Positions 17,453 to 63,777 are shown, numbered from the stretch's first letter. The stretch: 64,000 nt of DNA from Gammaproteobacteria bacterium (GCA_965208655.1 CBDBPJ010000003.1:551790-615789); one strand, 5' to 3'. Notes: generated by a model from the sequence alone, not told the origin. Made by a program: numbers and translations.

Positions 17453-17456
17453 GGCA

Positions 17457-28648: not shown

Positions 28649-28649
28649 G

Positions 28650-33129: not shown

Positions 33130-33137
33130 CCGTCATT

Positions 33138-34803: not shown

Positions 34804-34854
34804 ATATTTGGGGTCAGAGCAAGAGCTCTGACCCCTTGCTCTGACCCCAAATAT
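34804..34854. repeat. 51-bp palindromic MITE/REP-like element (unit GGGGTCAGAGCAAG), copy 1
   Basis: 20-bp perfect arms atatttggggtcagagcaag / cttgctctgaccccaaatat; lies between the stops of convergent hyuB genes; related 90-bp copy at 56929-57018. Confidence 0.6.
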
Positions 34855-41744: not shown

Positions 41745-41765
41745 GCCCTGATCGGTATCAGGGGA
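41745..41765. terminator. Short GC hairpin (ccctgat-cggt-atcaggg) between convergent genes
   Basis: 7-bp stem overlapping the tannase-2 stop codon; no T-tract. Confidence 0.25.
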
Positions 41766-46397: not shown

Positions 46398-47554
46398 TGT
46401 CCCGCCTCCTCGTACGCAGCCAACTCCCGTCGCTCTACCTGCAAGGCCTCCCGCCACAGCGCTGCATGATGGGCCGGGATACTCTGCCAACCGGCGCCGG
46501 CCGGGCGCAACCGGTGCTCGGCAATACACCGGTCCTGGCCGTCCACCACGCGTAAGCGGTCATCCAGGCCGATGTGCACCGTCACCGGTTGACCACAGTA
46601 CACTGCCGGCACACTGTAGCGGTTGCCGCGCACCTCGATATACCCGTCCCAGGCCACAAACCGCTGTTCCCGGTAAGCCGTATCAAAACGCACCGTCGGT
46701 AAGGGGGATAACTGTCCACGCTCTGCCTCAAACCGGTCTATGACGCGCTGCCGATGCGTCCCGTGCATGCGTGGGTCCGCCTCGTCCCGTAACCAACTCT
46801 CCAACTGCTGGTTCAGATGCGCCAGGGTCTCAAACTGCCGGTAGCGCACAAAGAAGTGTTCCTTCACATAACGCACCATGCGTTCGGTCTTGCCCTTGGT
46901 GCGCGCCCGGTACGGCCGGCACGCCTTCGGCATAAATCCGTAATGCCCCGCCAGGTCCAGAAAACGCGGATGAAACTGCACGCCTTCCCCCACTCGATGC
47001 GCAATCACCGCCGACTTCTGGTTGTCCACCAGCACCGTCTTCGTTACACCGCCCAGGTACGCAAAACTGCGCACCAGACACTCATAGGTGTGCGCCGCAT
47101 CCTGACTGACCGTGCCCCACACATGAAACCGGCGCGAATACCCCAGCGTGTTCACCGCAATAAACACCTTCTGCTCAAGTCCGCCTATCGCCGTCCAGAC
47201 TTCGCCCCAGTCATGCTGTAACTGCTCCCCTGGCCCAGTCTCAAAACGCACCGTCGCCCGGCTCGCACGCAACGGACGCTTGGGCCGGATATAGGCCCGG
47301 ATCAAACTCACTTCACCCGGATAACCCTGTCCCTGCAACTCGCGCTGAATCACCATCGCATTCCACACCCCCGCCTGCAACAACCGGTCTATCGCCGGCT
47401 TGTACGGGTCCAGAATACTGCCCCGGGCACGCGGCCGTTTCCCGGCCGGCGCACCGCCTCGCTTCAATGCCCGACTCACCGTCCTGGGGTGTACCCCCAG
47501 CTCCCCGGCAATGTCTTTGATATACACCCCGTCGTCGTGTTTGTGTTGTATCAT
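46388..47554 (-). CDS. istA: IS21 IstA transposase (HTH + DDE)
   Basis: N-terminal HTH IAGELGVHPRTVSRAL; start MIQHKHD preceded by GAGGAG RBS. Confidence 0.9.
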   Translation of the reverse strand: MIQHKHDDGVYIKDIAGELGVHPRTVSRALKRGGAPAGKRPRARGSILDPYKPAIDRLLQAGVWNAMVIQRELQGQGYPGEVSLIRAYIRPKRPLRASRATVRFETGPGEQLQHDWGEVWTAIGGLEQKVFIAVNTLGYSRRFHVWGTVSQDAAHTYECLVRSFAYLGGVTKTVLVDNQKSAVIAHRVGEGVQFHPRFLDLAGHYGFMPKACRPYRARTKGKTERMVRYVKEHFFVRYRQFETLAHLNQQLESWLRDEADPRMHGTHRQRVIDRFEAERGQLSPLPTVRFDTAYREQRFVAWDGYIEVRGNRYSVPAVYCGQPVTVHIGLDDRLRVVDGQDRCIAEHRLRPAGAGWQSIPAHHAALWREALQVERRELAAYEEAGQWN

Positions 47555-48851
47555 CAGATAGTCTCCTCGCTTGAGCATCGGTTATCTCCTGTTCTTGAAC
47601 AAAACAAGAAGGTAACCCCGATGCTCGGGTTGAGGGGACTTTTTAGTTTCCTGATATGGGGACTTTTAACATACTTGCTGACACCGGTGAAATGATCTGG
47701 CACTATCAAATCCTGCACCACACGATCTGGGACTACGACCTTGCGCCCCAGCCCCTGCTGGTTGATCTGCCCCGTGACGGGGAGATGGTGCCGGTGGTGG
47801 TGCAGAACACCAAGCAGGGCTTGATCTTTGTTTTTCACCGTGAAACGGGGGAGCCGTTTTTCCCCATTGAAGAACGGCCGGTGCCCCAGGGCGATGTGCC
47901 GGGCGAATGGTACTCCCCGACACAACCGTTCCCGGTAAAACCGCCGCCTTTGATCAAACCTACTGTAACGCCGGACGACATGTGGGGATTCACCTTCTGG
48001 GACAAGGGCAAGTGCCGCGAGACGCTGGAAACACTGCGTTACGGGGACATGTATACACCGCCAAGCCTGCAGGGGAGCGTGATCAGCCCCTGGACCGGCG
48101 GCGGCGCCAACTGGGGCGGCCCGGCCTTTGACCCAGAACGCGGCCTGATGATCATCAACACCAGCCGGGTCATGAAGGTTTCCAAACTGGTGCCCATAGA
48201 GGAAGCCGATAAAGACACGAAAGGTGATGACTTTCACTATGGCCCCGCGGAAAAAATGCACGGGACACCGTATGCGATCAAGGACCAGTTGTTCGTATCT
48301 CCATGGGGCGCTCCCTGTAACACACCGCCCTGGGGCGGCCTGACCGCGGTTAACCTTGCCGAAGGTACAATCTCGTGGGATGTCCCGCTGGGTTCCATCG
48401 AAGATCATCTTCCCCTGCCAATCCCCTGGAACCTGGGTATGACGAATATCGGCGGTCCGATCATCACCGCCAGCGGCCTGATCTTCATCGCCGCGACAAT
48501 GGACCAGGTCTTTCGAGCCTTTGATATAGAGACCGGTGAGGAGTTATGGCGTGACAAGTTGCCTGCGACCACCATGACAACGCCCATAACCTACGAGGTT
48601 AACGGCAGACAGTATATTGCCGTGGTCTCGGGGGGGCATGGTGAGGTCCCCAGCGTCAGGGGTGACTATGTGCTGGGTTATGCCTTACCTGCGGATTAAC
48701 TCCCGCGGGGTGAACTAATCATCTGTTCCAGGGGACACCCTTCAACATCGCCACCTACTCTTTGTTTCTTTGCCGAATGGATTAAACCTTCGCAGCGCCA
48801 TACAGAAGGACGGCTGCAAATAAGATGACAATCACACACAGCGCTATCATT

Positions 48852-49070
48852 TCAATCATAGGGTTCTGATTTCTTCGATGAGTTGATTAATTCGTAATCC
48901 CGATCCAGGGATATCGTCATCTTGACTTTTGCCGGTTTACCTTTTTCATCCTTGAGTTCCGGCAACAGGCCGCGACGCTTCACTTTCAGTTTTTTCAGGT
49001 CATATTCTTCGCGCATAATCTTCTGCCTTGCGATGGGTTGTTTTACGTGTCGAAATGATGCGGATGGCAT
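48852..49070 (-). pseudogene. Truncated brnA-like (RHH, COG3514-type) antitoxin gene fragment
   Basis: MREEYDLKKLKVKRRG...KVKMTISLDRD matches the BrnA N-terminal pattern, then diverges and stops; shares a 118-bp repeat with 53482-53598. Confidence 0.4.
48921..49037. repeat. Direct repeat copy 1 (~118 bp, 60-bp perfect core 48969-49028), paired with 53482-53598
   Basis: Core gccgcgacgcttcactttcagttttttcaggtcatattcttcgcgcataatcttctgcct is identical in both copies. Confidence 0.7.
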
Positions 49071-49110
49071 TCCCGGCGCCTATAGCGGTTTGATCACGGG
49101 ACGGAATTCC

Positions 49111-49410
49111 TTAAGCAGCTATGGTCCTCCGGACAAACTCAGGATCAGCCTGAATCAGACGCAGGTAATTTGAGGCAGCCGCATCGGGGGAGCGTTTACC
49201 CTGTTCCCATCCTTTTAGTGTGTCCAGGCTCAGGTGGTAAGAACGCGCAAACACGGCTTGCGACATGTTTACCTTTCGCCGAATCGCCTTGATCGTCGCA
49301 GGTGTTATCACCAGATAAGCAGTTTCGGGCGTTATTTTGCCTTTGGCTACCTCTACTGCTTCTTTCAGGTTGGCTTCGAGTTCGTTGAATAACTTGTCGT
49401 CCACGCTCAT
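49111..49410 (-). CDS. XRE-type HTH antitoxin (COG2944/YiaG-like), apparently orphan
   Basis: ITPATIKAIRRKVNMSQAVFARSYHLSLDTLKGWEQGKRSPDAAASNYLRLIQADPE matches the COG2944 antitoxin pattern; no intact toxin ORF upstream. Confidence 0.55.
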   Translation of the reverse strand: MSVDDKLFNELEANLKEAVEVAKGKITPETAYLVITPATIKAIRRKVNMSQAVFARSYHLSLDTLKGWEQGKRSPDAAASNYLRLIQADPEFVRRTIAA

Positions 49411-49680
49411 CCCCTAACCGAATTCATCGATAATTTGATCTACATACTTTTTCAAACATACCGATTGGAACGAGTATCTGCATCTTGCATCGTTTTTCCT
49501 GTAACCCTTACTGTGGTTCATTGAACCCTGAAAGTCAATAAGTTACCTCAAAACTGAACCATCTGGATCAGACGAACCCGTCGACTTCTGTGATACCCTT
49601 TGGCAGTATGAACAAGCTTTTCAGCCCTGATATTATCCAGAATGTAACCGCACTGATGTTCGCATAGGTTGGAATTGATA

Positions 49681-50760
49681 ATGCGTGTCGGAAAGAAGCA
49701 AGTTCTCTTAGTTGCAATCCTCCTGTCATTTATCATTGTATTGACAGCCATCTTCCTGGCGTATTGCTCGTATCGTTACGACAAGGTAATGGAAGTTGAT
49801 ATTTCTGCCGGTATCAACGAGGGGATGTATGAAACCATTGGCGGCACGCAACAATGGATTCAGATAAGAGGCAGAGACAGGAGTAACCCCGTCATTTTGT
49901 GGCTGAACGGAGGCCCGGGGTTTTCTACTATTCCGCAAACGTTCTTCCATGTGCCGTTGGAAAAGGATTTTACCGTGGTCATGTGGGACCAGCGTGGAGA
50001 GGGCAAATCCTACGCATTCACCGGTCCCTCCATCGCCCCGACGATGACTATAGAGCGGATGGCTGCTGATGGGGTGGAGCTTGCCGAGTTTCTAAAACAA
50101 CATCTTGGTGTCGACAGGATTGTGATTATGGGACATTCCTGGGGGTCGATACTTGGTGTACGCATGGCACTGATGCGGCCGGACCTGTTTTCAGCCTATA
50201 TCGGCACCGGGCAGGTTGTCGGTCTCAGGGAAGCGATGGAACTGGAATATCCGTCGATCCTGGATATGGCTCGTGAGACGGGAAATGAGCAGTCAGTTGA
50301 GGAATTGGAGGCTGCCGGACCTCCACCATACAGCAGGGTTAATGACTACATGATTCCTATTCGATGGGCGAATGCTTTCGATGCCGTAGCACCGTCGGAA
50401 CCCGGTCTTGGTAACACACTTTCTGCCATCTGGGCCTTTTTCAGGTTGTTTGTTTTGACTGATAGATCAGTCCGGGAGGGCATTGTGTTTTCGCAAAAAT
50501 TAATGCTGGAACCGATGCTTGATGAAGATGTTCCCGGGCTTGGAACTGACTTTGACATTCCGGTTATATTTATTCAGGGTAGTGAGGATAAACTGTCTCC
50601 GACCGCAATGGTTCGACAGTATTACGAATCTATCTCTGCTCCGGAAAAGAAAATGATTGTCCTGGACGATGCCGGACATTTGGCCATTCTCAGAAATCGA
50701 GCGCTGTTTAGAGATGCACTGTTAGGTATTAAGCCTTTGTTAACCGCAAATGAAGGATAA
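49681..50760 (+). CDS. Membrane-anchored alpha/beta hydrolase (proline-iminopeptidase/S33-like)
   Basis: N-terminal TM helix; GHSWGS nucleophile elbow; ATG at 49681 preferred over the TTG at 49669. Confidence 0.7.
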   Translation: MRVGKKQVLLVAILLSFIIVLTAIFLAYCSYRYDKVMEVDISAGINEGMYETIGGTQQWIQIRGRDRSNPVILWLNGGPGFSTIPQTFFHVPLEKDFTVVMWDQRGEGKSYAFTGPSIAPTMTIERMAADGVELAEFLKQHLGVDRIVIMGHSWGSILGVRMALMRPDLFSAYIGTGQVVGLREAMELEYPSILDMARETGNEQSVEELEAAGPPPYSRVNDYMIPIRWANAFDAVAPSEPGLGNTLSAIWAFFRLFVLTDRSVREGIVFSQKLMLEPMLDEDVPGLGTDFDIPVIFIQGSEDKLSPTAMVRQYYESISAPEKKMIVLDDAGHLAILRNRALFRDALLGIKPLLTANEG

Positions 50761-50854
50761 GTGTTTGCTAAGGCGAATTTAGATTAATCCAATATGATTA
50801 TCGCCGTCGTTCGACTCAGACTGATTTCACTTCCTGAAACGCAGACCTGCAGCT

Positions 50855-51103
50855 TCAGGGCAACTCATCGCCCGAGCGTGGAAGTTCTCCACCGGACCGA
50901 AACAGAAGAGAGCGAAAAGCGTCCATATCGGCTTCATTCATCTTATTCAAAAAAAATTGCTCGGTTTCCAGCACCGAAATCTTTTCAGCTACCGCAATGG
51001 TAATAAACTGGTTCATGCTGGATCCGTCCCGTTTGGCCACCTTGGCGACCTTGTCTTTCAAAGATTTCGGCAGTCTCAGTGGATAGGTTGATAAATCAGC
51101 CAT
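50855..51103 (-). CDS. Ribbon-helix-helix (Arc/MetJ-type) DNA-binding protein, putative antitoxin
   Basis: YPLRLPKSLKDKVAKVAKRDGSSMNQFITIAVAEKI RHH pattern; overlaps the PIN gene stop by 8 nt. Confidence 0.5.
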   Translation of the reverse strand: MADLSTYPLRLPKSLKDKVAKVAKRDGSSMNQFITIAVAEKISVLETEQFFLNKMNEADMDAFRSLLFRSGGELPRSGDELP

Positions 51104-51524
51104 TTCTCACCCTCCTCAAGGCTACCGCAGGGTTAATTACCGCAATATTAAACATATCCGACACTTTGGCATAATCACGCAGGTTAAACGTCACGATGGC
51201 GTCTGCCTGACCGTTAACAGCGACCTCAAGCACCATTTCGTCATTAGGGTCTCTCAGGAAAGGCCGCCATAAAAAATGTGTCTTGACCGGTTCGATCAAA
51301 GCTGTAAGTCCGCTCACAAAAACAAGCGCCTGTTCCTGGTTCAACCCTGCCGCTATCCAGTGTTCCCGGGATGTGCATTTCGCTTCGTACTCAAAGAACA
51401 ACGGCACGCTGGCCAGCATTTTGAGTCGCTTGTCTAATACTTCGCCCAGCAAAGCGGAAGAAGCTCCAGTCGGGCTGCGCATCGCTGCGACAATGACATC
51501 CGTGTCTAAAACATATCTATGCAT
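51096..51524 (-). CDS. PIN-domain (VapC-like) putative toxin
   Basis: Start placed at MHRYVLDTDVIVAAMRS (PIN N-terminal acidic motif); ~143 aa. Confidence 0.55.
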   Translation of the reverse strand: MHRYVLDTDVIVAAMRSPTGASSALLGEVLDKRLKMLASVPLFFEYEAKCTSREHWIAAGLNQEQALVFVSGLTALIEPVKTHFLWRPFLRDPNDEMVLEVAVNGQADAIVTFNLRDYAKVSDMFNIAVINPAVALRRVRNG

Positions 51525-51629
51525 GATGGTTAACAATACATCATATATGATATCATAGCAACTATCTTGGCTACATTTTTTTCCCGCATCTGTAATAGGA
51601 ATATGGGGTCGGACCACTCCGGCTCCGCG

Positions 51630-51923
51630 TCAGGCAACTTCAAGCTTTTCGAAATCGTCGAAGTTGATCTTCTGCCGCGCTTCCCATAAATCGAAGTTAT
51701 CCTGCATAGCCAACCAGCTTTCCGGGGACCTGCCGATGACTTTGGACAGCTTGAGCGCCATGGTCGGTGTGATGCTGCCCTTGGCGTTGAGAATCCGGCT
51801 CATCACGGATTCACTGATCCATAACCTCTCGGCCAGACCTTTCGCGCCGATGTTGAAGGGTTCCAGATAGACCCGTTTGATAAAGACTCCCGGATGCATG
51901 GGATTATGTTGCTTGATACTCAT
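51630..51923 (-). CDS. HigA-family HTH antitoxin (COG3093-like), orphan
   Basis: HPGVFIKRVYLEPFNIGAKGLAERLWISESVMSRILNAKGSITPTMALKLSKVIGRSPESWLAMQ matches the HigA pattern; no HigB ORF upstream. Confidence 0.65.
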   Translation of the reverse strand: MSIKQHNPMHPGVFIKRVYLEPFNIGAKGLAERLWISESVMSRILNAKGSITPTMALKLSKVIGRSPESWLAMQDNFDLWEARQKINFDDFEKLEVA

Positions 51924-52323
51924 TAGTGATAATCCTCATAATCTATGGCATTAACGTCGCAATATAGACGAGATCGCTGACATGTCGCGATTGTTCCATA
52001 AGATTTCATAGAATCGACGAACCTGGGCTTTTTGTTCGACCATGAGCATTTAATGCGATTTTATTCACCGTTTCCGGACTTGATTTAATACTTTTTACTT
52101 CCCTGGTATTTTTGGACTAATCAGGTGGCAGAAGTTTTTTCTCGCAAATTCAACATCTGCTTCATCAAGGGATTGAGTGAATAATTTTTTTCTTCAGGTT
52201 GCACCATTTTTGGTTCTTCTTGTTATTGACGTTCTCCAGGGTCATCATACTACCTCAATCATCTATATGAGAAACTTGGGCAGGCCAAACCGCTAATTCG
52301 GACAGTCAAGCTCAACGAAAGCT

Positions 52324-52653
52324 ATGAATAACGACTACGTAATTGAGAAACTTACAGATGCAATGGATGCGCTCACAACGGGACGTGGAGATGTTCGTTC
52401 CCGTATAAAAAATGCCTACTCATTAATGCATACAGTTCGCGAGAGTGATTTTCCAGACAATCTGAAAGAGGACTGGGTCTGGATATATGGAGAAATTACA
52501 AAATGTGGCCCTTTGCTCGGGCCTAATGGTGAAGTTTGGCTTAGCAGCGTAGAGAATACTATGCGATCTATCAGGAACATAACCGGACAACGAATAGCTC
52601 GGCGTATTTCTAAACTATATTGGGAGATAAGTAAGAATGAAAAATATTCCTGA
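52324..52653 (+). CDS. Hypothetical protein, AT-rich, no recognisable domain
   Basis: ATG start; 109 aa; lowest-GC stretch of the window. Confidence 0.3.
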   Translation: MNNDYVIEKLTDAMDALTTGRGDVRSRIKNAYSLMHTVRESDFPDNLKEDWVWIYGEITKCGPLLGPNGEVWLSSVENTMRSIRNITGQRIARRISKLYWEISKNEKYS

Positions 52654-52843
52654 AAGACAGCAAATTACAGCGTGCGACCCAGATTGTCAGTTTGATATAC
52701 GATAAAAAATGTTACCACCTAGCCATACTTCTAGAACCCCTGAAGATATAGTAAGTAAAGAATTATATTTCGATTCTATAGGACATTTATATCGAGCAGT
52801 GTCCTAGCTTGACTACTTTGAAAGGAATGATCAGTTTACAGCT

Positions 52844-53386
52844 TTGATATATGCGTGTATTGAAGCGCGTTTTGGAATAGAAAACTTAATATTTGAAGAA
52901 ATTGTAATTTCAACAGGCGCCAACCTTTCAAAAGAAGATTATGAAAAATGCTTAAACAATCCAACAAATTTAAATAGCGCGTTAAAAAAAATATCCCCAG
53001 AATATGAAAAACTACAAGAATTTACGCAGTTAATTGTGAGCTTGAGTCCTGAATTTCCAAGGATAATACAGTGGGAGCCACGGAAGCTGATTAAATCATG
53101 GGGGAAAATATCCAAATATCTACACTGGTGTGGAAGTAGGAGCGAGACCACTGATTTATCTAGCTGGAGAGCCAGCGTTGGAAGAGCGATGAGAGGAGAA
53201 ATTGCACCAATCTGGAATAAGATTACTTCTGGTCATAGTGGGTGTATGCATCCTGATGATATGCATCCCAAAATTTCGGAACTATGGGGCCAATTCAAAA
53301 GTGGCGATATCGATACTGAAAGCGCAAAAATACGGATGCTAATATTAAAACCTTTGTTGCGGCTGGACAGGGTAGGAGTTGCCTGA
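52844..53386 (+). CDS. Hypothetical protein, AT-rich, no recognisable domain (TTG start in track; start uncertain)
   Basis: 180 aa ORF in a very AT-rich context; in-frame stop at 52805 leaves only a TTG start. Confidence 0.3.
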   Translation: MIYACIEARFGIENLIFEEIVISTGANLSKEDYEKCLNNPTNLNSALKKISPEYEKLQEFTQLIVSLSPEFPRIIQWEPRKLIKSWGKISKYLHWCGSRSETTDLSSWRASVGRAMRGEIAPIWNKITSGHSGCMHPDDMHPKISELWGQFKSGDIDTESAKIRMLILKPLLRLDRVGVA

Positions 53387-53481
53387 CTGTTTGTTCTATA
53401 CGGAGACTTATGATGGATTATTCTACTCTCTGAATTTGGTGCCAGTTGCAAATTTAGACTACTACACAGTCAGGATATTGT

Positions 53482-53598
53482 CCTGACTTTTGCCGGCGTC
53501 CTTTTTTTGTCGTTGAGTTCCGGTAACATGCCGCGACGCTTCACTTTCAGTTTTTTCAGGTCATATTCTTCGCGCATAATCTTCTGCCTAGCGACGGG
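53482..53598. repeat. Direct repeat copy 2 (~118 bp; perfect core 53530-53589); encodes a second, shorter brnA-like N-terminal fragment on the minus strand
   Basis: Reverse-strand translation gives ...ARQKIMREEYDLKKLKVKRRGMLPELNDKK... then stop. Confidence 0.7.
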
Positions 53599-53618
53599 AG
53601 TGCCGTACACCGGGTCCG

Positions 53619-55220
53619 TTATTGACAGGTGAAATTTTCCGCCTCGTCGGTACTGCCATTACCCTCATAAACAGCCACTTCAGGGTACGGACACAGCGGC
53701 CGGGTACGCACAACTTCACCGTTTTCGATCCGTGCAGCGTCTATCCGTTCGGGTACTACTCCCGCTTCAACCCAATCAATCAGCGTGGTCATAACATCAA
53801 AGTGGTCAACATTACGGCCACCGCGGCAATGGAACATGCCGGGCACCATGAAAGTGCGGAAAAATGAATGAGTTTCCTCGCCCATCGCCTCCATGACCTG
53901 TTCATAGTACTGCACCGTCATGATCGGACTCACCCCCACGTCAGCCCAGCCGTGGTACATGAGGATCTTGTTTCCCCCATCCATAAAAGGACTCAGGTCC
54001 GTAGCCGTGGCATTCATGATCCGGCCCATTGGCTGCATTTTCTCCAGATCGCCCTCCATGTCCAGTTCTTTCCAGTCATAATCGGGGTCGTCCGTAGTAA
54101 ACGCCATGTACTTGAGCCAGGATTCGAGTATTTCCAGGGTCATGTTATACCCGGTGCCTTCGCGGTAAACCCGCGCCGACCAGGGTGAGGCTTCACTGGT
54201 TTTTTCATAGGTTCGACCCGCATCACGCACGCCGGGCAGTTCCGCACCTACGGGCAGACCCGGTGCGACCTGCCTGTCGCCGATGCGGGGGCCCTGGTAA
54301 ATCCGGGTAAATGCCTCGATCTCCGCATCGGTAAAGCCGTTTTTACCCTCCGGGTCCCGGGGCAGGTCCCGGGCCGGCACGAAATCGACAGCCAGGGGGT
54401 TGCCTATCACGCGGTCTGCAACGCCGTCCAGTGCGTCGTATTTCTCCATGATTATCTCTCCCAGCATGTGCACCCGTTCGGCGCTGAGCGGTATCTTGTC
54501 CGCCGTTGCCTGGTTCCACCAGGATTGCATCTCGATGGTCGGCAAATCGTAAAACGGCGCGCCCACGGCAATGCCGTCAAAATCATCCGGGAAGCGCTGG
54601 GCCGCAACCAGACCCTGGCGCCCGCCGCCGGAACATCCTTCGAAGTATGCATAGGTGGGTTCCTGTCCGTAATAACGGGAGATCAGTTGTTTTGCGACCA
54701 CGGCCGTCAGGTGAACGGCGCGATAACCGTAGTCAATTTCCTTCTGGATATTATTGTGCGCCCACGAGGCGAAGTGCGCATCATCGGTATGGCCCGTATT
54801 GGTGAACGCGGTGGCAAAGCCCAGGCGCCGGGCCTTGGCCCTGTCTTCCCTGGCGTAATCGCCGTAAACGGATTGCCCGCCAAACCCGCCGTTGCCGATC
54901 ATGTACAGGCGTCCGTTCCACTGCTTCGGCAGGTTGACGACATACTGTATCTCCGGCGTGATGACGCCGTAAACTTCACAGTGCTCGGACGAATTCTCAT
55001 CGGCAGGGATGGTTTTTGCGGAGATCACGCTGTGGTTGTAATCCGTCAGGCTCACAAGCCCGCGGCAATCTCCCGTCGCGGTTACAGCAGCAAGGTGGTA
55101 GTTAACACGACCATTACCTGCATCAGCGAAACTGGCGCCGTTTACATCCGCTCCAATCGTTACGGCAGGCGCCAGGCACAGCAAACCGGAGATGATCAAG
55201 ATATTTTTTTTCAATGACAT
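53619..55220 (-). CDS. Secreted tannase/feruloyl-esterase-family hydrolase (paralog 3)
   Basis: Signal peptide; GCSGGG motif; tandem with paralog 4. Confidence 0.8.
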   Translation of the reverse strand: MSLKKNILIISGLLCLAPAVTIGADVNGASFADAGNGRVNYHLAAVTATGDCRGLVSLTDYNHSVISAKTIPADENSSEHCEVYGVITPEIQYVVNLPKQWNGRLYMIGNGGFGGQSVYGDYAREDRAKARRLGFATAFTNTGHTDDAHFASWAHNNIQKEIDYGYRAVHLTAVVAKQLISRYYGQEPTYAYFEGCSGGGRQGLVAAQRFPDDFDGIAVGAPFYDLPTIEMQSWWNQATADKIPLSAERVHMLGEIIMEKYDALDGVADRVIGNPLAVDFVPARDLPRDPEGKNGFTDAEIEAFTRIYQGPRIGDRQVAPGLPVGAELPGVRDAGRTYEKTSEASPWSARVYREGTGYNMTLEILESWLKYMAFTTDDPDYDWKELDMEGDLEKMQPMGRIMNATATDLSPFMDGGNKILMYHGWADVGVSPIMTVQYYEQVMEAMGEETHSFFRTFMVPGMFHCRGGRNVDHFDVMTTLIDWVEAGVVPERIDAARIENGEVVRTRPLCPYPEVAVYEGNGSTDEAENFTCQ

Positions 55221-55222
55221 GA

Positions 55223-56812
55223 TTATTCACACCTGAAACTGTCCGCCCGGTTGCTGTCCCCTGAACCCTGGTAACGCGCCGCCTTCGGGTAAGGGCACAG
55301 GGGACGGGTGCGGGTAACGCGATTATTTTCAACTCTGGAGGCGATAATCCGGTCCGGCGCGACATCCGCCTCCACCCAGTTTATCAGCGTCGTCATGGTG
55401 TCAAACCGGTCCACGTTGCGGCCGCCGTAGCAATGGAACATGCCGGGTATCATATACGTCCTGAAAAAAGACTGTGTTTCCTCATCCCCCATCGTCTGCA
55501 TGACCTTGTCGTAATACTGCACGGTCATGATGGGGCTGACGCCGATATCCCCCCAGCCGTGATACATGAGCAGCTTGCCGCCGCTGTTGCTGAAAGCGGA
55601 GAGGTCAGGGTTATCGGCATTGAATATGGCTGACATCGCCGCCATGCGGGGCCAGTCTTTTTCCGGGTCCAGTTGGTGCCAGTCAAAGTCCGGATCATCT
55701 GTTGTAAAGGCCATATACCGCAACCACGGGACTAATATGTCCAGTTGCTGATTGTAACCTGAAATATCCGGGTAGAGGCGGGAATTCCACGATGACAGCA
55801 TGGGGGATTTGTCTGCAGTGCGGGCCGCGTCCCGTCTTCCCGGCAATTCCGCCCCGGCCACGATACCTGGCGCGATTTGTTTACCATTCAACTCCAGTCC
55901 TGCGAAGAGCCGCTGCAGGGTCTTGATCTCGGCGCGGGTAAACCCATCCCGGCCTGTTTCATCCCCGGGCAGGTCGCGTGCCGGGTCGAAGTCGATTTCC
56001 AGGGGATTGCTGATGATGCCGTCCCGCAGGCCGTCCACCGCATCGAACCTGTCCATGATGAACTTCCCCAACTGTTCAACCTTTGCCGCGGACAGGGCCG
56101 TTTCGGCCAGCGCTACCTGGTTGTTCCAGTATTGCATCATAATGCCGGCCAGGTCGTAAAACGGCGCGCCCGCGGCAATACCGTTGAAATCGCCGGGAAA
56201 TCGCTGTGCGGCGACCAGGCCCTGGCGGCCGCCGCCTGAACAGCCGTCAAAATAGGAGTAAGTGGCAGGTTTGCCGTAGTAGGCCGTTACCAGGCGCTTT
56301 GCCGTCACAATCGTCAAATGGACCGCGCGAAAGCCGTAATCGATTTCTTTCTGCAGATCGTTGTGGGCCCAGCTGGCATTATGCCCGTCGTCACGGGTAT
56401 GCCCGGTATCGGTAAAGACCGTGGCAAATCCCTGGCGCAGCGCCGGACCGGATAATTCAGCGCCGTAGGACCCGGTGACGGACTGGCCGCCGTATCCGCC
56501 GTTGCCGTGCATGTAGATACGCCGGTTCCAGTTGTCCGGTAATTTGAGCATGAACTGGACCTTGGGCTCGATAATTCCATAGATGGCGCACAGTCCGGGC
56601 AAACCGTCAGCGGCTTCAACCTCCGTGGCTGAGATAACGGCGAAATCAAAGTCCGAATGGCGGCCCAGTTCACTGCATTTGAGCGCCGGGACCGCAGAGC
56701 CGGCAGCGAGGTCCACGGCAATCTCGCTTGCCGCAAGAAAATTCCCGCCATGTGTGGCTTGTGCTGATACCGGCGCAGGCAGGCAACTGCAGTAAATCCC
56801 GATAATAATCAT
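55223..56812 (-). CDS. Secreted tannase/feruloyl-esterase-family hydrolase (paralog 4)
   Basis: Start placed at internal ATG MIIIGIYCSC (signal peptide); GCSGGG motif; 2-nt gap to paralog 3. Confidence 0.8.
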   Translation of the reverse strand: MIIIGIYCSCLPAPVSAQATHGGNFLAASEIAVDLAAGSAVPALKCSELGRHSDFDFAVISATEVEAADGLPGLCAIYGIIEPKVQFMLKLPDNWNRRIYMHGNGGYGGQSVTGSYGAELSGPALRQGFATVFTDTGHTRDDGHNASWAHNDLQKEIDYGFRAVHLTIVTAKRLVTAYYGKPATYSYFDGCSGGGRQGLVAAQRFPGDFNGIAAGAPFYDLAGIMMQYWNNQVALAETALSAAKVEQLGKFIMDRFDAVDGLRDGIISNPLEIDFDPARDLPGDETGRDGFTRAEIKTLQRLFAGLELNGKQIAPGIVAGAELPGRRDAARTADKSPMLSSWNSRLYPDISGYNQQLDILVPWLRYMAFTTDDPDFDWHQLDPEKDWPRMAAMSAIFNADNPDLSAFSNSGGKLLMYHGWGDIGVSPIMTVQYYDKVMQTMGDEETQSFFRTYMIPGMFHCYGGRNVDRFDTMTTLINWVEADVAPDRIIASRVENNRVTRTRPLCPYPKAARYQGSGDSNRADSFRCE

Positions 56813-56928
56813 CACCCTTGAGAAACAGGTGCGAAGCACCGGGAATAATCCCCGGGAGTGAAGCTGTTTAGCGCGCATGGAAGTCAGTCACCTTGGTCGC
56901 TGTCCGAAAAACATTTTATTTGCGGAAA

Positions 56929-57018
56929 TTTGGGGTCAGAGCAAGGGGTCAGAGCAATATACCTGCGCCATCCAAGCTTGGCCGTATTTTTGCTCTGACC
57001 CCTTGCTCTGACCCCAAA
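56929..57018. repeat. 90-bp MITE/REP-like element, copy 2: 29-bp perfect inverted arms (2x GGGGTCAGAGCAA units each) around a 32-bp spacer
   Basis: tttggggtcagagcaaggggtcagagcaa ... ttgctctgaccccttgctctgaccccaaa; sits in the divergent intergenic region. Confidence 0.65.
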
Positions 57019-57064
57019 AGTTATGTAGATGTGATCCTACTACAGTTTGCTATCATGCCGATCT

Positions 57065-57751
57065 ATGGCCGCGCCGATTATAGAATTTCGCCACCTGTCC
57101 AAATCCTACCGGGAGGCCGATCAGGAGCATGTTGTTCTGGATGATGTAAACAGAAAAGTATACGAAGGGGAATTTATCGTGTTGCTGGGCAAGAGCGGGT
57201 CCGGCAAATCCACCCTCCTGAATCTCATCAGCGGTATCGATGCTCCGAGCCGGGGCGACATACTGGTAGACGGGCAATCACTGACCGGGATGAGCGAGGA
57301 TGAACGCACCCTGTTCCGGCGCCGTCATATCGGTTTCGTGTTCCAGAGTTTCAACCTGATCCCGACACTGACGGTAAGGGACAACCTGTTGCTGCCGCTG
57401 GAGTTGACCGGCCGGCTTGATGACGGCAACCGCACAGCACTCGAGAATATGCTGGACGAGCTGGACATGGCGCACCGGATTGACTATTACCCCGACAAGC
57501 TGTCCATCGGTGAACAACAGCGCATCGCGATTGCCAGGGCGCTGATCCACAACCCATCCATCATTCTCGCCGATGAACCCACAGGCAACCTCGACCACGA
57601 CACCGGGCAGGACGTGTTGAACCTGCTTGACCAACTGGTGCGCCGCTCCGGCAAGACCATGATCATGGTCACCCACAGCCGGGAGGTCATCGGCCTGGCC
57701 GACCGCTTGATGACGATACGGGATTGCCGGCTGGAAGAAAGTAATTGTTGA
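57065..57751 (+). CDS. ABC transporter ATP-binding protein (YbbA/LolD-like)
   Basis: Walker A GKSGSGKST, ABC signature LSIGEQQR, Walker B ILADEPT. Confidence 0.85.
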   Translation: MAAPIIEFRHLSKSYREADQEHVVLDDVNRKVYEGEFIVLLGKSGSGKSTLLNLISGIDAPSRGDILVDGQSLTGMSEDERTLFRRRHIGFVFQSFNLIPTLTVRDNLLLPLELTGRLDDGNRTALENMLDELDMAHRIDYYPDKLSIGEQQRIAIARALIHNPSIILADEPTGNLDHDTGQDVLNLLDQLVRRSGKTMIMVTHSREVIGLADRLMTIRDCRLEESNC

Positions 57752-60312
57752 CCGCAAACAAAATCCTGCTACGGTCGAGCCGGCATTTTTTCCTGCGCCA
57801 CCCCTGGCAACTGATCCTGGCTGTAGCCGGCATCGTACTGGCTGTAGCCGTGGTGGTGTCCGTCGACCTGGTAAACAAAAGCGCCGGCCATGCCTTCGAA
57901 CGATCCACCGAAACCGTCGTCGGCAGGGCCACCCACCAGGTTGTTGGCGGACCTGCCGGTCTCGATGAAACGCTGTACACCCGAATGCGTGTAGACCATG
58001 GCATGCGCGACCTGGCGCCCGTGATCGAGGCCCACGTTACACTCCGGAAGGATGAACGGCGGGAGACCGTGGTCTTACTCGGTCTCGATCCCTTCGCGGA
58101 AAGGACATTCCGCGCATACGCCTGGTTCAACAACCTGCAGAACCCGGAAGGAGAGGGGGTGTTCATCCCCCTGTTGACGGAAAGAAATACCGTACTCCTC
58201 GACGCCGCCACGGCAAACCGCCTGGGCCTGGTGGAGAATGATGGTGCGACCCTGGTTACCGGCGGCCGGAGCATACCGGTTAGTGTCAAAGGCATCCTGG
58301 CCGGGTCCGTAGCGGGAACGTCTCAAAGTCCTGACAACCTTCTGTTGGCGGATATTGCCACCGCCCAGGAAGTACTTGATATGCCAGGACGGATTAACCG
58401 CATCGATGTGGTGCTCGAAGACGGGGACGCCGCGACGAAAAACCGGCTGGAATCCCTACTGCCTGACGGCGCGGCTTTGCTGCCGTCAAGCACGAGGACC
58501 CGTTCCCTGGAGCAGATGACCGGCGCTTTTCATACCAACCTCACCGCACTCAGCCTGCTGGCGCTGCTGGTGGGCATGTTTCTCATCTATAACACCATGA
58601 CCTTCATGGTGATGCAGCGACGTCCTCTGCTTGGCAGGTTGCGGGCCCTGGGGGCAACGCGGTGGCAACTGGGGGCGATGATTGCCATGGAGGCCTTGCT
58701 GGTGGGTCTGGCGGCTACTGCTGCCGGCCTGCTGTTCGGTATCGCATTGGCGCACGGCCTGCTACAGGTCGTAAACCGCACCTTAAACGAGGTCTATGAC
58801 CTGCTCACGGATGCGAATCTCACCCTGACGCACTTCTCATTGATCAAGGGCGTATTGCTGGGCACGGCAGGGACACTGCTGGCGGCCGGTCCCGCGGCGC
58901 TGGAAGCAACCAGGGTCACCCCGGGACAGGCGCTGCTGCGTTCCCACCTTGAAACGTCTGCACGGCGCGTGGTGCTGCCTGCGTCCCTTGCGGGCGTTGT
59001 TGCGCTGTGCGCAGGGGTTGCGGTTATCCAGCTTTCCAGTCCCGGTATCGGACTGGGCTTCAGCGGGATTTTTATCATAATTATGGGTGTTGCCCTGTTT
59101 ATACCCCTGGTGACCGTTGCCTTGATGGCCTGTTTAAAGCCCCTACTGGGCGGGGTCTTCGGTATTTCAGGCCGCTATGCCTGCCAGTCGGTATCGGCTT
59201 CCCTGAGCCGCACCACCGCGGCCGTCGCCGCCCTGATGATCGCCATCGCCACGGTCATCGGCATAGGCCTGATGGTCAATAATTTCCGTGTTTCCGTGGA
59301 CCGCTGGTTGCAACAGGCGCTGCGGGCGCAGATGTACGTATCGCTGCCGTCGACAGGCACGACGGCCTCGGCCCGTGCCCTGGATGCCGGAATGGCGGAA
59401 GCGATCCTTGCGCTGCCGCAGGTGAGCGCAGTCAGCAGTGTGCGGCGCATCAACATTGAATCGTCCCGGGGGCGGACTGAGCTTGCCGCCTACGGCCTGA
59501 ACGAGGTCGCATGGGAAGGGTTCCGGTTCAAACACGGCGATGCGGATGACATCTGGACTGACTTTCGCCAGCAAGACACGGTCATTGTTTCCGAGCCCTA
59601 TGCCTGGCGTCATGGACTGAAACCGGAAGATGTGCTGGAACTGCGCACCGATCACGGCAACCGGTCGTTCCGGGTGCTGGGCGTATACAAGGATTACGGT
59701 TCCGACCAGGGTGTGGTCAGCATGAGCCGGCGCACCTACGAACGCCACTGGCGCGACGACCGCTATTCGGGTTTCGGCATATACACACAGCCCGGAACGG
59801 ACCTGGAGGCGTTGCGCAGGCAGGTACGGCAACTGGCGCCTGAGCGGGACCTGTGGCTGCAGGACAGGGACAGGATACTGCAGACATCGCTGGAGGTATT
59901 TGACAATACCTTCGTCGTCACCGAGATCCTGCGGGTGCTGGCGGCCGTCATTGCTTTTATCGGCGTGTTCAGCGCACTCATGGCGTTACAACTGGAGCGC
60001 CGCCGGGAACACGCCCTGCTGCGGGCCGTGGGTTTTTTGCCCGGGCAGGTACGGCGGCTGATAATTTCGGAAACCGGACTACTGGGTCTTGTTGCCGGAC
60101 TGCTGGCGGTCCCCGTGGGTTGTCTCATCACCGCCCTGTTGATCCTGGTCATCAACCGCCGCTCCTTCGGCTGGACCATGGAATTGCAGTTCAGCGCGGA
60201 CATCATGCTCCAGGGCATTGGCCTCGGTCTTGCCGCGGCCCTGCTTGCCGGCATCTATCCCGCCTGGAAGATATCCCGTGCGGAACCGGCCGAGGCCCTG
60301 AGAACGGAGTAA
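57745..60312 (+). CDS. ABC transporter permease with duplicated FtsX domains (YbbP-like, 855 aa)
   Basis: Two blocks of TM helices with large periplasmic loops; overlaps the ATPase stop. Confidence 0.8.
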   Translation: MLTANKILLRSSRHFFLRHPWQLILAVAGIVLAVAVVVSVDLVNKSAGHAFERSTETVVGRATHQVVGGPAGLDETLYTRMRVDHGMRDLAPVIEAHVTLRKDERRETVVLLGLDPFAERTFRAYAWFNNLQNPEGEGVFIPLLTERNTVLLDAATANRLGLVENDGATLVTGGRSIPVSVKGILAGSVAGTSQSPDNLLLADIATAQEVLDMPGRINRIDVVLEDGDAATKNRLESLLPDGAALLPSSTRTRSLEQMTGAFHTNLTALSLLALLVGMFLIYNTMTFMVMQRRPLLGRLRALGATRWQLGAMIAMEALLVGLAATAAGLLFGIALAHGLLQVVNRTLNEVYDLLTDANLTLTHFSLIKGVLLGTAGTLLAAGPAALEATRVTPGQALLRSHLETSARRVVLPASLAGVVALCAGVAVIQLSSPGIGLGFSGIFIIIMGVALFIPLVTVALMACLKPLLGGVFGISGRYACQSVSASLSRTTAAVAALMIAIATVIGIGLMVNNFRVSVDRWLQQALRAQMYVSLPSTGTTASARALDAGMAEAILALPQVSAVSSVRRINIESSRGRTELAAYGLNEVAWEGFRFKHGDADDIWTDFRQQDTVIVSEPYAWRHGLKPEDVLELRTDHGNRSFRVLGVYKDYGSDQGVVSMSRRTYERHWRDDRYSGFGIYTQPGTDLEALRRQVRQLAPERDLWLQDRDRILQTSLEVFDNTFVVTEILRVLAAVIAFIGVFSALMALQLERRREHALLRAVGFLPGQVRRLIISETGLLGLVAGLLAVPVGCLITALLILVINRRSFGWTMELQFSADIMLQGIGLGLAAALLAGIYPAWKISRAEPAEALRTE

Positions 60313-60315
60313 CCG

Positions 60316-61491
60316 ATGTCAGGGCGTAAATTCATGAAATTCGTGAAGGTAATATTTATCCTGCCGGCAGTCCTTGCAATGTCCGGCTGTGCCGAAAGGA
60401 GTGAAGGGAACAGTGATGAACCGATTTCCGTCGCTAACGTATTGCGCGGCGATCCTGCCCAGGCCTTTGCCCGGGTTGGTGAGCCGCGAAAATTCATCTT
60501 CCCGGCCGACCATGGCCCCCACAACGAGTATCGCAGCGAATGGTGGTACTTCACCGGCAACATCGACGCGGGCGAGGAACGCCGCTTCGGCTACCAGCTC
60601 ACCTTTTTTCGGTTCCGGCCGAGAGCAGGGGAGACAAGCGGTTCTTCCCGCTGGCGGACTGAACATTTCTACATGGCCCACTTCGCCTTGAGCGATATCA
60701 ATAATGAAAGGATCCATGCCTTTGAGCGCTTCAGTCGCGGCGCCGCGGGTCTGGCCGGCGCCGGTGCGGACAGGTTGCATGTCTGGCTTGACGACTGGTC
60801 TGCAGAAGCGGCATCACGGGAGACATTCCCCCTGCGCATCCGCGCAAGGCAAGACCGGATCGGCCTGGACCTTACCCTGCAACAGGGCAAGGCTGTCGTC
60901 CTGCACGGTGAAGACGGCGTCAGCGTGAAGAACGGCGAACCGAGCAATGCCTCCTATTACTACTCGTACACCCGCATGCCGACAGAGGGTAGCATCAGCG
61001 TTGGAGATACGACCTACACGGTACGCGGCAACAGCTGGATGGACAGGGAGTGGAGCAGCAGCGCCCTGGGCAGGGAACAGGTCGGGTGGGACTGGTTTGC
61101 GCTGCAACTGTCAAACGATCACGAACTGATGTACTACCGTTTCCGCCGCGCGGACAACGCGGTTGACCGGTTCAGCTACGGCGCGGTTATTTTCCCGGAC
61201 GGGAGCATGCAGACGCTCGGTTTCGACCAGGTAGAGCTGGATATACTCGATACCTGGCCGAGCCCCGAAAGCAGTGTAATCTACCCGTCCGCATGGCGCC
61301 TGCGGGTGCCGGCACATGGGCTCGACCTCAACATCCGCCCGGCGCTGGCCGACCAGGAACTGGACCTGTCGTTCCGTTACTGGGAGGGCGCGGTGGAATT
61401 CAACGGCGCGTTCGGCGCAAATGAGGTAAATGGCCGCGGCTATGTGGAGCTTACCGGCTACGATGCAGCTTCCGCGCCGCGAACCCGGTAA
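60316..61491 (+). CDS. CrtC/AttH-like (hydroxyneurosporene-synthase-fold) lipoprotein
   Basis: Lipobox-like AMSGC; EWWYFTGN motif typical of the CrtC/AttH family; classic partner of ybbA/ybbP-type transporters. Confidence 0.6.
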   Translation: MSGRKFMKFVKVIFILPAVLAMSGCAERSEGNSDEPISVANVLRGDPAQAFARVGEPRKFIFPADHGPHNEYRSEWWYFTGNIDAGEERRFGYQLTFFRFRPRAGETSGSSRWRTEHFYMAHFALSDINNERIHAFERFSRGAAGLAGAGADRLHVWLDDWSAEAASRETFPLRIRARQDRIGLDLTLQQGKAVVLHGEDGVSVKNGEPSNASYYYSYTRMPTEGSISVGDTTYTVRGNSWMDREWSSSALGREQVGWDWFALQLSNDHELMYYRFRRADNAVDRFSYGAVIFPDGSMQTLGFDQVELDILDTWPSPESSVIYPSAWRLRVPAHGLDLNIRPALADQELDLSFRYWEGAVEFNGAFGANEVNGRGYVELTGYDAASAPRTR

Positions 61492-62096: not shown

Positions 62097-62768
62097 ATGA
62101 CCAGGAGTAAAGGTGTTATCGTCCAGTCGGAGCGTCTGCGCGATCAGATCTATAAATTGATCCGGGACGATTTGCGCACCGGCGCGCTGGCGCCCGGTGA
62201 ACGGTTGGTTGAAGTGAGCCTGGCAAAAAAACTGGGTGTATCCCGCACCCCGGTGCGTGAAGCGCTGTTCCAACTGGCCAGTGACGGTTTGCTGGCCGAA
62301 TCCAGCCGGGGTTACATGTTGCCGGTACACACTACTGAGGAAATCAGGGACAGGTTGGAGATACGCAGGCTGCTGGAACCGGAAATACTGCGCCGGGCAT
62401 GCGAAGAAGCCAGCAGCAAGCAGATTAAATCATTGCTGAAAGCCCTGGAAGAAGAGAAGAAATATATCGATGCGGAAGATGCGAGCAAGTTCATCGGCGC
62501 CAATGCCAACTTTCGCCTGGCGCTTTTAAGCATGTGCAAAAATCCGTTATTGACGAAATGTGCTGAACTGTACGATGACCAGTTTCAGTGTTTTCGTATC
62601 TGGGGATTGATTGATCCCAAAAACCGGGAACTCACGTCGGTCTCTCATGAAAAGATTTGCAACGCGATTAAAAACAGGAATCCCGTTACGGCGGTGCAAG
62701 CCTTGCAACAGTTACTGGACAGGGTCGAAGACATGCTGGGAGAGTACAGCGACAGCGTAGCTTCCTGA
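62097..62768 (+). CDS. GntR-family (FadR/FCD subfamily) transcriptional regulator
   Basis: N-terminal HTH LAPGERLVEVSLAKKLGVSRTPVREAL and C-terminal FCD-type helical domain. Confidence 0.85.
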   Translation: MTRSKGVIVQSERLRDQIYKLIRDDLRTGALAPGERLVEVSLAKKLGVSRTPVREALFQLASDGLLAESSRGYMLPVHTTEEIRDRLEIRRLLEPEILRRACEEASSKQIKSLLKALEEEKKYIDAEDASKFIGANANFRLALLSMCKNPLLTKCAELYDDQFQCFRIWGLIDPKNRELTSVSHEKICNAIKNRNPVTAVQALQQLLDRVEDMLGEYSDSVAS

Positions 62769-62823
62769 ATTCCTGCTGTTTAACCCGGGTAGATTTGTGA
62801 CAATCTATACAGGAGAAATCATT

Positions 62824-63777
62824 ATGTATCGTTGGCAGTTTTTGTATCTGGCCTGGTTGCTGGCAAGTTTCTCTCTGGCGCAGGGTAGCGTGGCTGGCGA
62901 AGAGCAATGGTTCCCTTCAAAATATGGTGCTGCCGATACGATCGGTGCGGCGAATAATCTTTCACCGGAGAAAACACTTCGGGCAACCAGGCTGGTCAAA
63001 CAGGGCAAGGCTGTTTCCCTGGCAATTAATACCGGCGCGGATACGCCGGCCCCACCGTTCCGTTCCTACCAGATGCACATCATGCACCCGGGTGACGGGA
63101 CCGGCGCGCCGGGCGGCCCGCTGCAGGCCACCTCAAACGATGACATGATGATAACGTGGCTGGGTATCGGGACCCAGATCGACGGACTGGGTCACGCGGG
63201 CATCAACCACCGCTATTACAACGGCGTCCATGCAAGGGATTTTGTCCGCCCTTCCGGCCTGGCCAAATTCGGCACGCACGAGATACCGCCGATAGTTACG
63301 CGTGGTGTGTTACTGGATCTGGCTGCGTTCCTCGGCCATGACATTGTGCCGGCAGGAACCGCGTACGGCCGCCGGGATATTGAGGGAGCAGCCGAACGCC
63401 AGGGACTGCGTATAGAACAGGGGGACGTGGTCCTGTTACATGGCGCCTGGATGAAAAACTACGAGGAGGGGGGCGGCGCCTGGCTCTGGCACGGCTGGCC
63501 GGGATTGAATGTCGAAGGCGCGCAATACCTGGCCGGACTGGGTGTCGTTGCCATCGGAGCGGATAATGCCGGGCTGGAGGCCTGGGACGGGACGGGCGGT
63601 GCGCCTGGCTCCGGGGTACACCAGGAATTGCTGGCCAAAAACGGTGTTTATATTATCGAGGGAGTGTGGACCCTGGACCTGGCTGCCGCCGGGGTTTCCG
63701 AATTTCTGTTCGTGCTGGGGCAACCGAAGTTTGTCGGTGCGGCGCAGATGGTGGTAAATCCCATAGCCATCTACTGA
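62824..63777 (+). CDS. Secreted cyclase-family protein (kynurenine-formamidase-like)
   Basis: Signal peptide from MYRWQFLYLAWLLASFSLAQG; GIGTQIDGLGHAG..H motif region of the cyclase family. Confidence 0.6.
   Translation: MYRWQFLYLAWLLASFSLAQGSVAGEEQWFPSKYGAADTIGAANNLSPEKTLRATRLVKQGKAVSLAINTGADTPAPPFRSYQMHIMHPGDGTGAPGGPLQATSNDDMMITWLGIGTQIDGLGHAGINHRYYNGVHARDFVRPSGLAKFGTHEIPPIVTRGVLLDLAAFLGHDIVPAGTAYGRRDIEGAAERQGLRIEQGDVVLLHGAWMKNYEEGGGAWLWHGWPGLNVEGAQYLAGLGVVAIGADNAGLEAWDGTGGAPGSGVHQELLAKNGVYIIEGVWTLDLAAAGVSEFLFVLGQPKFVGAAQMVVNPIAIY

Follow-up and report, generated by a model that had tools for sequence, protein, structure and literature searches.

Four tannase-family esterase paralogs at a chromosomal site of variable content in an uncultured gammaproteobacterium

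Why would a bacterium keep four esterase genes of one family within 28 kb of its chromosome, and do the genes lying between them say what the enzymes are for? The question is raised by a stretch of 64,000 nucleotides from a Gammaproteobacteria bacterium (GCA_965208655.1, CBDBPJ010000003.1:551790-615789), called the window here, which encodes four tannase-family paralogs, T1 to T4, two of them in tandem. A first-pass annotation of this sequence described an expansion of secreted tannase/feruloyl-esterase-family hydrolases and suggested that they supply a pathway of aromatic-ester catabolism. We think it likely that they are four intact, exported PF07519 serine carboxylic-ester hydrolases, most likely differing in the ester they cleave, and that they are old paralogs plus one tandem duplication, located in a variable slot of the chromosome.

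Four intact members of the tannase family

All four genes are on the minus strand: T1 at 29208-30839 (543 amino acids), T2 at 41758-43383 (541 amino acids), T3 at 53619-55220 (533 amino acids) and T4 at 55223-56878 (551 amino acids). Their products match the Pfam profile PF07519 over nearly its full length (profile positions 10-17 to 489-490 of 490), with E-values of 9e-92, 3e-96, 2e-103 and 4e-108 respectively and scores of 309-363 bits against a gathering cut-off of 29.8, which makes all four members of the tannase family. A tblastn search of the window with T1-T4 returned exactly four copies and no fragments. The four-copy feature is real and far beyond chance, as was the earlier view. Pairwise identity among the paralogs is 45-55%, with T3 and T4 the closest at 55%. 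These two form the tandem pair already recognised, T4 upstream and T3 downstream, and because the gap between the T4 stop (TAA) and the T3 ATG is 2 nt they probably share a transcript. Between 53.2 and 57.2 kb, scans for promoters and terminators gave nothing above shuffled expectation, and an NCBIfam scan returned no model for any of the four.

The longest T1 open reading frame reaches 30983; T1 orthologs are conserved from MRFPCKL (30839) and not in the extension upstream, and 30839, the start first given for T1, is the methionine that the orthologs share. The start of T4 had been placed at 56812. Since the 551-residue orthologs of T4 have the same longer, Arg/Lys-rich N-terminus, 56878 is the likelier start.

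The residues needed for catalysis are all present. Ser197, Asp427 and His464 (T3 numbering) are invariant in T1-T4 and in 115/115 aligned homologs, as are Cys196 and Cys465. The triad aligns with S225, D492 and H528 of the terephthalate mono-ester hydrolase MHETase, and the two cysteines with its C224 and C529. Cys196 and Ser197 lie in the nucleophile elbow, GCSGGG in T3 (54621-54638; T1 30219-30236, T2 42766-42783, T4 56228-56245). The aspartate is in an H-G-W-A-D motif (53940-53954 in T3; T1 29538-29552, T2 42085-42099, T4 55547-55561), and His464 and Cys465 are in H-C-x-G-G (53817-53831 in T3; T1 29415-29429, T2 41962-41976, T4 55421-55435). A predicted Ca2+-site motif in the lid, D-x-x-D-x-x-x-D (Asp262, Asp265 and Asp269; 54414-54437 in T3, T1 30012-30035, T2 42559-42582, T4 56021-56044), also has invariant aspartates, and aligns with the MHETase stretch CDALDGLADG. 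Family precedent (PMC7568301) suggests an active-site disulfide, Ca2+ binding and ester hydrolysis for the paralogs.

The GCSxGG motif ascribed earlier to every copy holds for T1 (GCSTGG) and for T3 and T4 (both GCSGGG). T2 has GCSTAG, alone among 122 sequences. The T2 orthologs at loci L003, L045 and L009 retain GCSTAG, down to 67% identity, so the change is a stable trait of the T2 orthogroup.

A fold was predicted for T3, using an AlphaFold2 model built on the 115-sequence alignment (pLDDT 92.1, pTM 0.91). The model has an alpha/beta-hydrolase core with a large lid domain. Foldseek comparison of the T3 model with the PDB gave TM-scores of 0.78-0.80 to MHETase (27-29% identity), 0.76-0.78 to the fungal feruloyl esterases AoFaeB (A. 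oryzae) and FoFaeC (F. oxysporum) and the A. oryzae esterase 6G21 (24-27% identity), and 0.68 to A. niger tannase, with all other folds at about 0.35 or less. The alignments to MHETase, AoFaeB and FoFaeC extend over about 530-585 columns and include the lid. Sequence searches of the PDB gave the same order: MHETase was the best match (phmmer E ~1e-60; profile E 1e-105, full length), followed by the fungal feruloyl esterases, with the fungal tannase last. The full-length Pfam matches, the intact triad and the fold match of T3 together bear out the placement of these proteins among the tannases, feruloyl esterases and MHETase.

The likeness is closest to Ideonella sakaiensis MHETase (6QZ1, 6QGA), which shares with the paralogs the triad, the Cys-Ser...His-Cys arrangement, the lid aspartates of the Ca2+ site, the cysteines of the N- and C-terminal disulfides and, since export of the paralogs is probable, presumably secretion. 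At 27-29% identity it is still a distant relative. The unaligned lid stretch of the paralogs is about 20 residues shorter, and both MHETase lid disulfides are absent from them. AoFaeB (3WMT), FoFaeC (6FAT, 8BHH) and 6G21 have the fold with its lid and the catalytic arrangement in common with the paralogs, but are eukaryotic secreted enzymes with 24-27% identity. Among the solved members, tannin acyl hydrolase of Aspergillus niger (7K4O), which has the same Pfam family and overall fold, is the furthest removed (E 1e-18 to 1e-26, 20% identity, TM 0.68). By three measures against PDB chains (bit score, identity and TM-score), the paralogs are about equally distant from every characterised specificity. 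Clustering of all copies on one known specificity, which would have spoken against a new substrate range, is thus not seen (24-29% identity to MHETase and the fungal feruloyl esterases). The suggested kinship with Lactobacillus-type bacterial tannases (TanB) is not supported: no chain of the Lactobacillus/Staphylococcus type (TanA/TanB) appeared among the PDB matches by phmmer (E <= 1e-3), by profile (E <= 1e-5) or in the top 50 from Foldseek.

Signal peptides were judged by inspection and hydropathy. The N-termini of T1, T3 and T4 have the K/R-containing n-region and hydrophobic core typical of signal peptides. That of T2 is weaker, with one Arg and a core hydropathy of 1.82, so the earlier statement that all four have signal peptides is clear for three of them and less so for T2. 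The first 30 or so residues of the T3 model have low pLDDT, which fits with a cleaved leader. Export of the paralogs is probable.

Codon comparisons with orthologs in related metagenome-assembled genomes (MAGs) gave ratios of non-synonymous to synonymous substitution (dN/dS) of 0.10-0.18 for all four genes in the informative comparisons. By gene the values were 0.17-0.34 for T1, where 0.34 comes from the closest pair and small counts, 0.13-0.17 for T2, 0.10 for T3 and 0.13-0.15 for T4. By this measure T1-T4 are under purifying selection, with none decaying, and they are probably all active.

The solved family members suggest how the paralogs would work. Each protein would be exported via a cleavable N-terminal signal peptide and would fold into an alpha/beta-hydrolase core with a large lid stabilised by Ca2+. 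The serine of GCSxxG, activated by the histidine of HC and the aspartate of HGWxD, would cleave the ester, while the cysteines adjoining the serine and the histidine would form the active-site disulfide of the family.

Ages of the paralogs and the lid pocket

The tannase family is very large. An exhaustive phmmer search with T3 against 1.84 billion cluster representatives retrieved 11,538 relatives with E <= 1e-3, of which 1,812 reached E <= 1e-30, and a word-indexed search found 1,371 relatives of T3 at E <= 1e-10, almost all of them unnamed or generically named. T1-T4 are further members of a known family, and gene sets of this kind are fairly ordinary and would not surprise a specialist. 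Most bacterial members have no known function; the best studied of these bacterial enzymes, MHETase, attracts biotechnological interest.

A neighbour-joining tree of 115 sequences shows T3 and T4 as sister orthogroups, which together make up a clade of 13 with no other members. T2 comes in only at the level of a 47-sequence clade and T1 at that of a 67-sequence clade, and sequences of many other taxa separate both from the pair. The tree therefore points to one lineage-restricted tandem duplication and two old, co-located paralogs. The word expansion fits T3 and T4, but as a description of the whole set it overstates the case.

The nearest genomes are uncultured MAGs labelled Gammaproteobacteria bacterium, with 93-95% identity, among them OZ242265.1 and OZ220696.1. 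In a more distant relative, the MAG SI037_bin171 (L002/L007, 6645-11565), there are three tandem tannase-family genes, one T4-like, one T3-like and a third, T3', 49% identical to T3. This triple is directly divergent from genes for a GntR/FCD regulator and a cyclase; in the window the same genes lie beyond the ATP-binding cassette (ABC) transporter module, at 62097-63777.

In MHETase the terephthalate carboxylate is bound by Ser131 together with Arg411, Phe415 and Ser416 of the lid (PMC7568301), and we mapped these positions by a profile alignment anchored on a conserved Ser-Trp (S419-W420 of MHETase, S367-W368 of T3). The Ser131 position is Gly in all four paralogs and the Ser416 position Ile in all four. 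The Arg411 position is Leu in T1, Ser in T2 and Asn in both T3 and T4, and the Phe415 position is Phe in T1, Ala in T2, Glu in T3 and Asp in T4. As the equivalents of Ser131 and Arg411 are missing, none of T1-T4 is MHETase. That identity (EC 3.1.1.102) had been considered for them and was rejected, both on the missing specificity residues and on the 27-29% identity to the I. sakaiensis enzyme. Judged by these residues, terephthalate mono-esters of the type cleaved by MHETase are not the substrates. A specificity for feruloyl or galloyl esters cannot be assigned to them either.

The pocket residues are constant inside each orthogroup and different among the paralogs, the patterns being Y-N-E-I-S in T3, Y-N-D-I-P in T4 and (G/R)-L-(F/S)-I-S in T1. 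This combination suggests that the four enzymes most likely act on different esters. The earlier proposal that they cover a substrate range not yet described is plausible.

Nor do bacterial members of the family need to be restricted to aromatic esters. EstC55-156, EstC55-234 and EstC55-269, which like T1-T4 are bacterial PF07519 proteins, are listed among the functionally derived lipolytic enzymes of a compost study (PMC9226776). A further bacterial PF07519 protein, P0087 (QRD81056.1, 'lipolytic protein [uncultured bacterium]'), is 43% identical to T3 but unlike the paralogs keeps a lid disulfide and has SCSNGG at the elbow. It could not be linked to the compost lipolytic screen PMC9226776.

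Several observations weigh against the reading of four intact, exported enzymes that act on different esters. Knott et al. describe five disulfides, that is ten cysteines, as highly conserved in the family (PMC7568301). Mature T1-T4 have six cysteines each, enough for three disulfides: those found in MHETase at the N-terminus, the active site and the C-terminus. Both lid disulfides are absent. Retention of the triad and of a disulfide-bonded lid had been proposed as a check on the copies: the triad and the active-site cysteine pair are kept in all four, and the lid disulfides are not. The positions of the MHETase lid disulfide C303-C320 are Tyr/Phe and Val/Ile in the paralogs. As the same absence is common to 75/122 of the nearest sequences, it is apparently a feature of the clade and not a sign of decay. 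The paralogs thus have fewer than the five disulfides, yet this is a subclade trait and no bar to family membership. T2, with Ala for the second Gly of G-x-S-x-G and the weakest of the four signal peptides, may differ from the others in activity or location. The pocket mapping comes from a profile alignment and not from superposed coordinates. Finally, association with a host is deduced solely from the names of MAGs. Names such as APA_bin_93, SB0675_bin_28, RHO3_bin_19 and Plut_88898 look like bins from sponges or corals, although this could not be confirmed. A literature search combining tannase or feruloyl esterase with sponge symbionts found nothing relevant.

We still prefer the reading of four exported esterases with different substrates, and it can be extended. 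There might be at least three natural-ester specificities new to the tannase family, neither feruloyl, galloyl or chlorogenate nor terephthalate mono-ester; the Glu of T3 and the Asp of T4 at the Phe415 position might point to cationic or strongly polar substrates; and the genes might have accreted at a chromosomal hot spot as an adaptation to host-associated marine life. We offer this extension tentatively, and think it rather doubtful. What the locus does provide is four intact, mutually diverged enzymes maintained by selection in an uncultured lineage, which the MAG names suggest is probably host-associated and marine. The lid positions that differ among them make a convenient small panel for studying the determinants of specificity, and the four are useful candidates for enzyme discovery.

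A slot of variable content

Whether the neighbouring genes say anything about function depends on whether they stay with the paralogs. We ran all proteins of the window against 48 related loci. The window is collinear with its close relatives, and the region in which the paralogs lie has clear boundaries. On the left, flanking T1 in all relatives, is a gene fusing a CTP-dependent riboflavin-kinase-like domain to a HAD phosphatase (RFK-HAD; 27611-28750, minus strand, identified by Pfam). On the right, divergent from T4, is an ABC-FtsX-AttH operon (57047-61491, plus strand). It encodes an ABC ATPase (57047-57751; Pfam, with a PDB match to YbbA), a permease of 855 residues with a duplicated (MacB_PCD+FtsX)x2 layout (57745-60312; Pfam) and an AttH lipocalin (60316-61491; Pfam, with a PDB match to 2ich), all on the plus strand.

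What lies between these boundaries varies. In L054, where the permease is 78% identical, the order is AdoHcyase-like, PhoD and RFK-HAD facing ABC-FtsX-AttH and then SnoaL; RFK-HAD is directly head-to-head with the ABC operon, and there are zero tannase genes. In L010, L012, L019 and L048 a single T1 ortholog (71-82% identity) sits between RFK-HAD and the divergent operon, and the slot has none of hyu, TPP (thiamine pyrophosphate) enzyme, T2, DctP, PQQ (pyrroloquinoline quinone) dehydrogenase, T3 or T4. The window and L003/L043 have the 28-kb block with four. The same slot therefore holds 0, 1 or 4 tannase genes, which means that the neighbourhood of hyu, TPP and TRAP (tripartite ATP-independent periplasmic transporter) genes is lineage-specific and gives no support for a pathway. 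The hyu, TPP, TRAP and ABC genes are neighbours by position and not by conserved linkage, and the locus is a caution against inferring pathways from neighbours.

The RFK-HAD fusion joins an archaeal-type PF01982 domain to HAD. For a gammaproteobacterium this is an unusual architecture, and no other neighbour of T1 is as well conserved across the related MAGs (68-98% identity).

Three functional associations could be proposed for the paralogs, and the content of the slot bears on each. The pathway of the first-pass annotation would have the paralogs act in the periplasm on aromatic esters (ferulate, gallate or phthalate type), with the hydrolysis products passing through the TRAP transporter to cytoplasmic catabolism by the hyu, TPP and 2Fe-2S proteins. 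It draws on the aromatic esters cleaved by characterised family members (PMC7568301; PDB matches) and on the hyu pairs, the TPP enzyme and the DctP substrate-binding protein, all of which do lie between the paralogs; no 2Fe-2S signature was found in any open reading frame near them. The T1 orthologs at 71-82% identity have no hyu, TPP or TRAP neighbours, the T2 ortholog in L009 has no DctP, and one close relative shares the backbone but lacks tannase genes altogether. In the window itself no TRAP membrane subunits adjoin DctP in the gene map. The best matches of the hyu pairs, which are below threshold, are caprolactamase or acetophenone carboxylase subunits, enzymes of lactams and ketones, so there is no obvious route for aromatic acids, and the MHET specificity residues are absent from T1-T4. 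We regard this pathway as improbable. A periplasmic chain from ester to alcohol to acid, in which T2 at least releases an alcohol that a neighbouring PQQ-dependent dehydrogenase oxidises, seems to us just as improbable. Some 1.2 kb separate T2 from such a dehydrogenase gene, of which relatives have an intact copy; the 67% identical T2 ortholog in L009 adjoins three PQQ dehydrogenases, and a further two are found some 5.6 kb downstream of the T4-T3-T3' triple, on a 442-kb contig of SI037_bin171. The association is nevertheless confined to a few independent lineages, and near more distant homologs a PQQ dehydrogenase is rare, with one weak match (L035). In the window the chain would be broken, as an IS21-family element has inserted into the gene, leaving an N-half (44591-45613) and a C-half (47656-48699). 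The element has a transposase gene (46388-47578) and imperfect terminal inverted repeats of 57 nt (45520-45576 and 47633-47689), and its insertion is recent because the dehydrogenase gene is intact in the close relatives L001 and L003.

The third association would make T4, or T1 in related genomes, the periplasmic hydrolase partner of the ABC transporter and AttH. In E. coli, YbbAP-TesA is a Type VII ABC transporter in complex with a periplasmic esterase, and draws hydrophobic esters out of the inner membrane to be hydrolysed (PMC12646458). The two loci are alike in having divergent esterase and ABC genes, with T4 (start 56878, minus strand) head-to-head with the ATPase gene (start 57047, plus strand) as tesA is with ybbAP, in the ATPase, which is 44% identical to YbbA, and in the duplicated (PCD+FtsX)x2 layout of the FtsX-type permease. 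A T1 ortholog takes the same head-to-head position in L010, L012, L019 and L048, and tannase-family enzymes are among the lipolytic enzymes derived functionally from compost (PMC9226776). There are also differences. The esterase of the window belongs to PF07519 and not to the SGNH/GDSL family, and the permease is no ortholog of YbbP (BLASTP 22% identity, E 0.003): the YbbP model NF041854 matches E. coli YbbP with 1458 bits and does not match the window permease. The ATPase scores equally against the LolD and FtsE models. Nor is the adjacency conserved. Permease homologs at 46-65% identity (L050-L053) keep ABC-FtsX, and three of the four keep AttH, with varied upstream genes of which none is a tannase; L054 has a module 78% identical on the same backbone with zero tannase genes; and the loci of distant tannase homologs (<=53% identity) have no such module, the commonest recurring neighbours there being TonB-dependent receptors. 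AttH, which is in the same operon, is the more obvious periplasmic partner. Examined starting from the tannases and again from the permease, the pairing lost weight because the permease is a non-ortholog and the adjacency is not conserved, and we consider it highly unlikely. Judged by these comparisons, the T4/ABC adjacency reflects position in a variable slot.

The ATPase-permease pair of the ABC-FtsX-AttH operon is kept down to 46% permease identity in the four other contigs sampled, one of them from Nitrosococcus halophilus, with AttH in three of the four. The operon apparently encodes a Type VII ABC system that has yet to be characterised, with AttH as its probable partner in the periplasm.

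Other genes and repeats in the window

The hyu genes (hydantoinase/oxoprolinase family) are a second accumulation of paralogs in the window. One cluster, at 13921-19520, has hyuA and two hyuB genes, and two hyuA/hyuB pairs lie tail to tail at 31048-34796 and 34875-38625. The sub-threshold best matches of the family are to caprolactamase CapA/CapB and to acetophenone carboxylase subunits.

Three other alpha/beta-hydrolases, unrelated to the tannase family, are encoded at 2526-3449 and 12680-13501 (both minus strand) and at 49669-50760 (plus strand); one is BD-FAE/hormone-sensitive-lipase-like and two are Abhydrolase_1. The window also encodes two amidohydrolases, an MBL-fold protein, a PhoD phosphatase and two TonB-dependent receptors, and is generally rich in hydrolase and uptake genes.

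Next to T2 is u274 (40887-41711, plus strand), which encodes a protein of 274 residues whose N-terminus resembles a signal peptide and which no Pfam or NCBIfam model matches. It was considered as a candidate partner that might recur with the paralogs. Its AlphaFold2 model was unusable (pLDDT 39.5). The search found 24 homologs, nearly all from close relatives and with 59% identity or more, and weakly similar proteins (27-31% identity) are encoded again near tannase or PQQ dehydrogenase genes in L002/L007, L009, L013 and L025.

Just downstream of T3, the stretch 48000-54000 has a low GC content (43-51%, against 56% for the whole window), and its gene content varies among close relatives. It includes a PIN-domain gene (51096-51617) and small open reading frames at 49111-49410, 50855-51103 and 51630-51923 that look toxin-antitoxin-like from sequence alone.

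A palindromic element resembling repetitive extragenic palindromes (REP), made from the 13-mer GGGGTCAGAGCAA, occurs at 56932-57015 and 34810-34848; the 13-mer has 7 matches where 1.6 are expected by chance. At the T4/ABC intergenic region two tandem units face two inverted units, and the smaller palindrome (34810-34848) lies between convergent hyuB genes. Related MAGs have the element at the same intergenic sites, in a copy number that varies, with up to 4 tandem units in L006.

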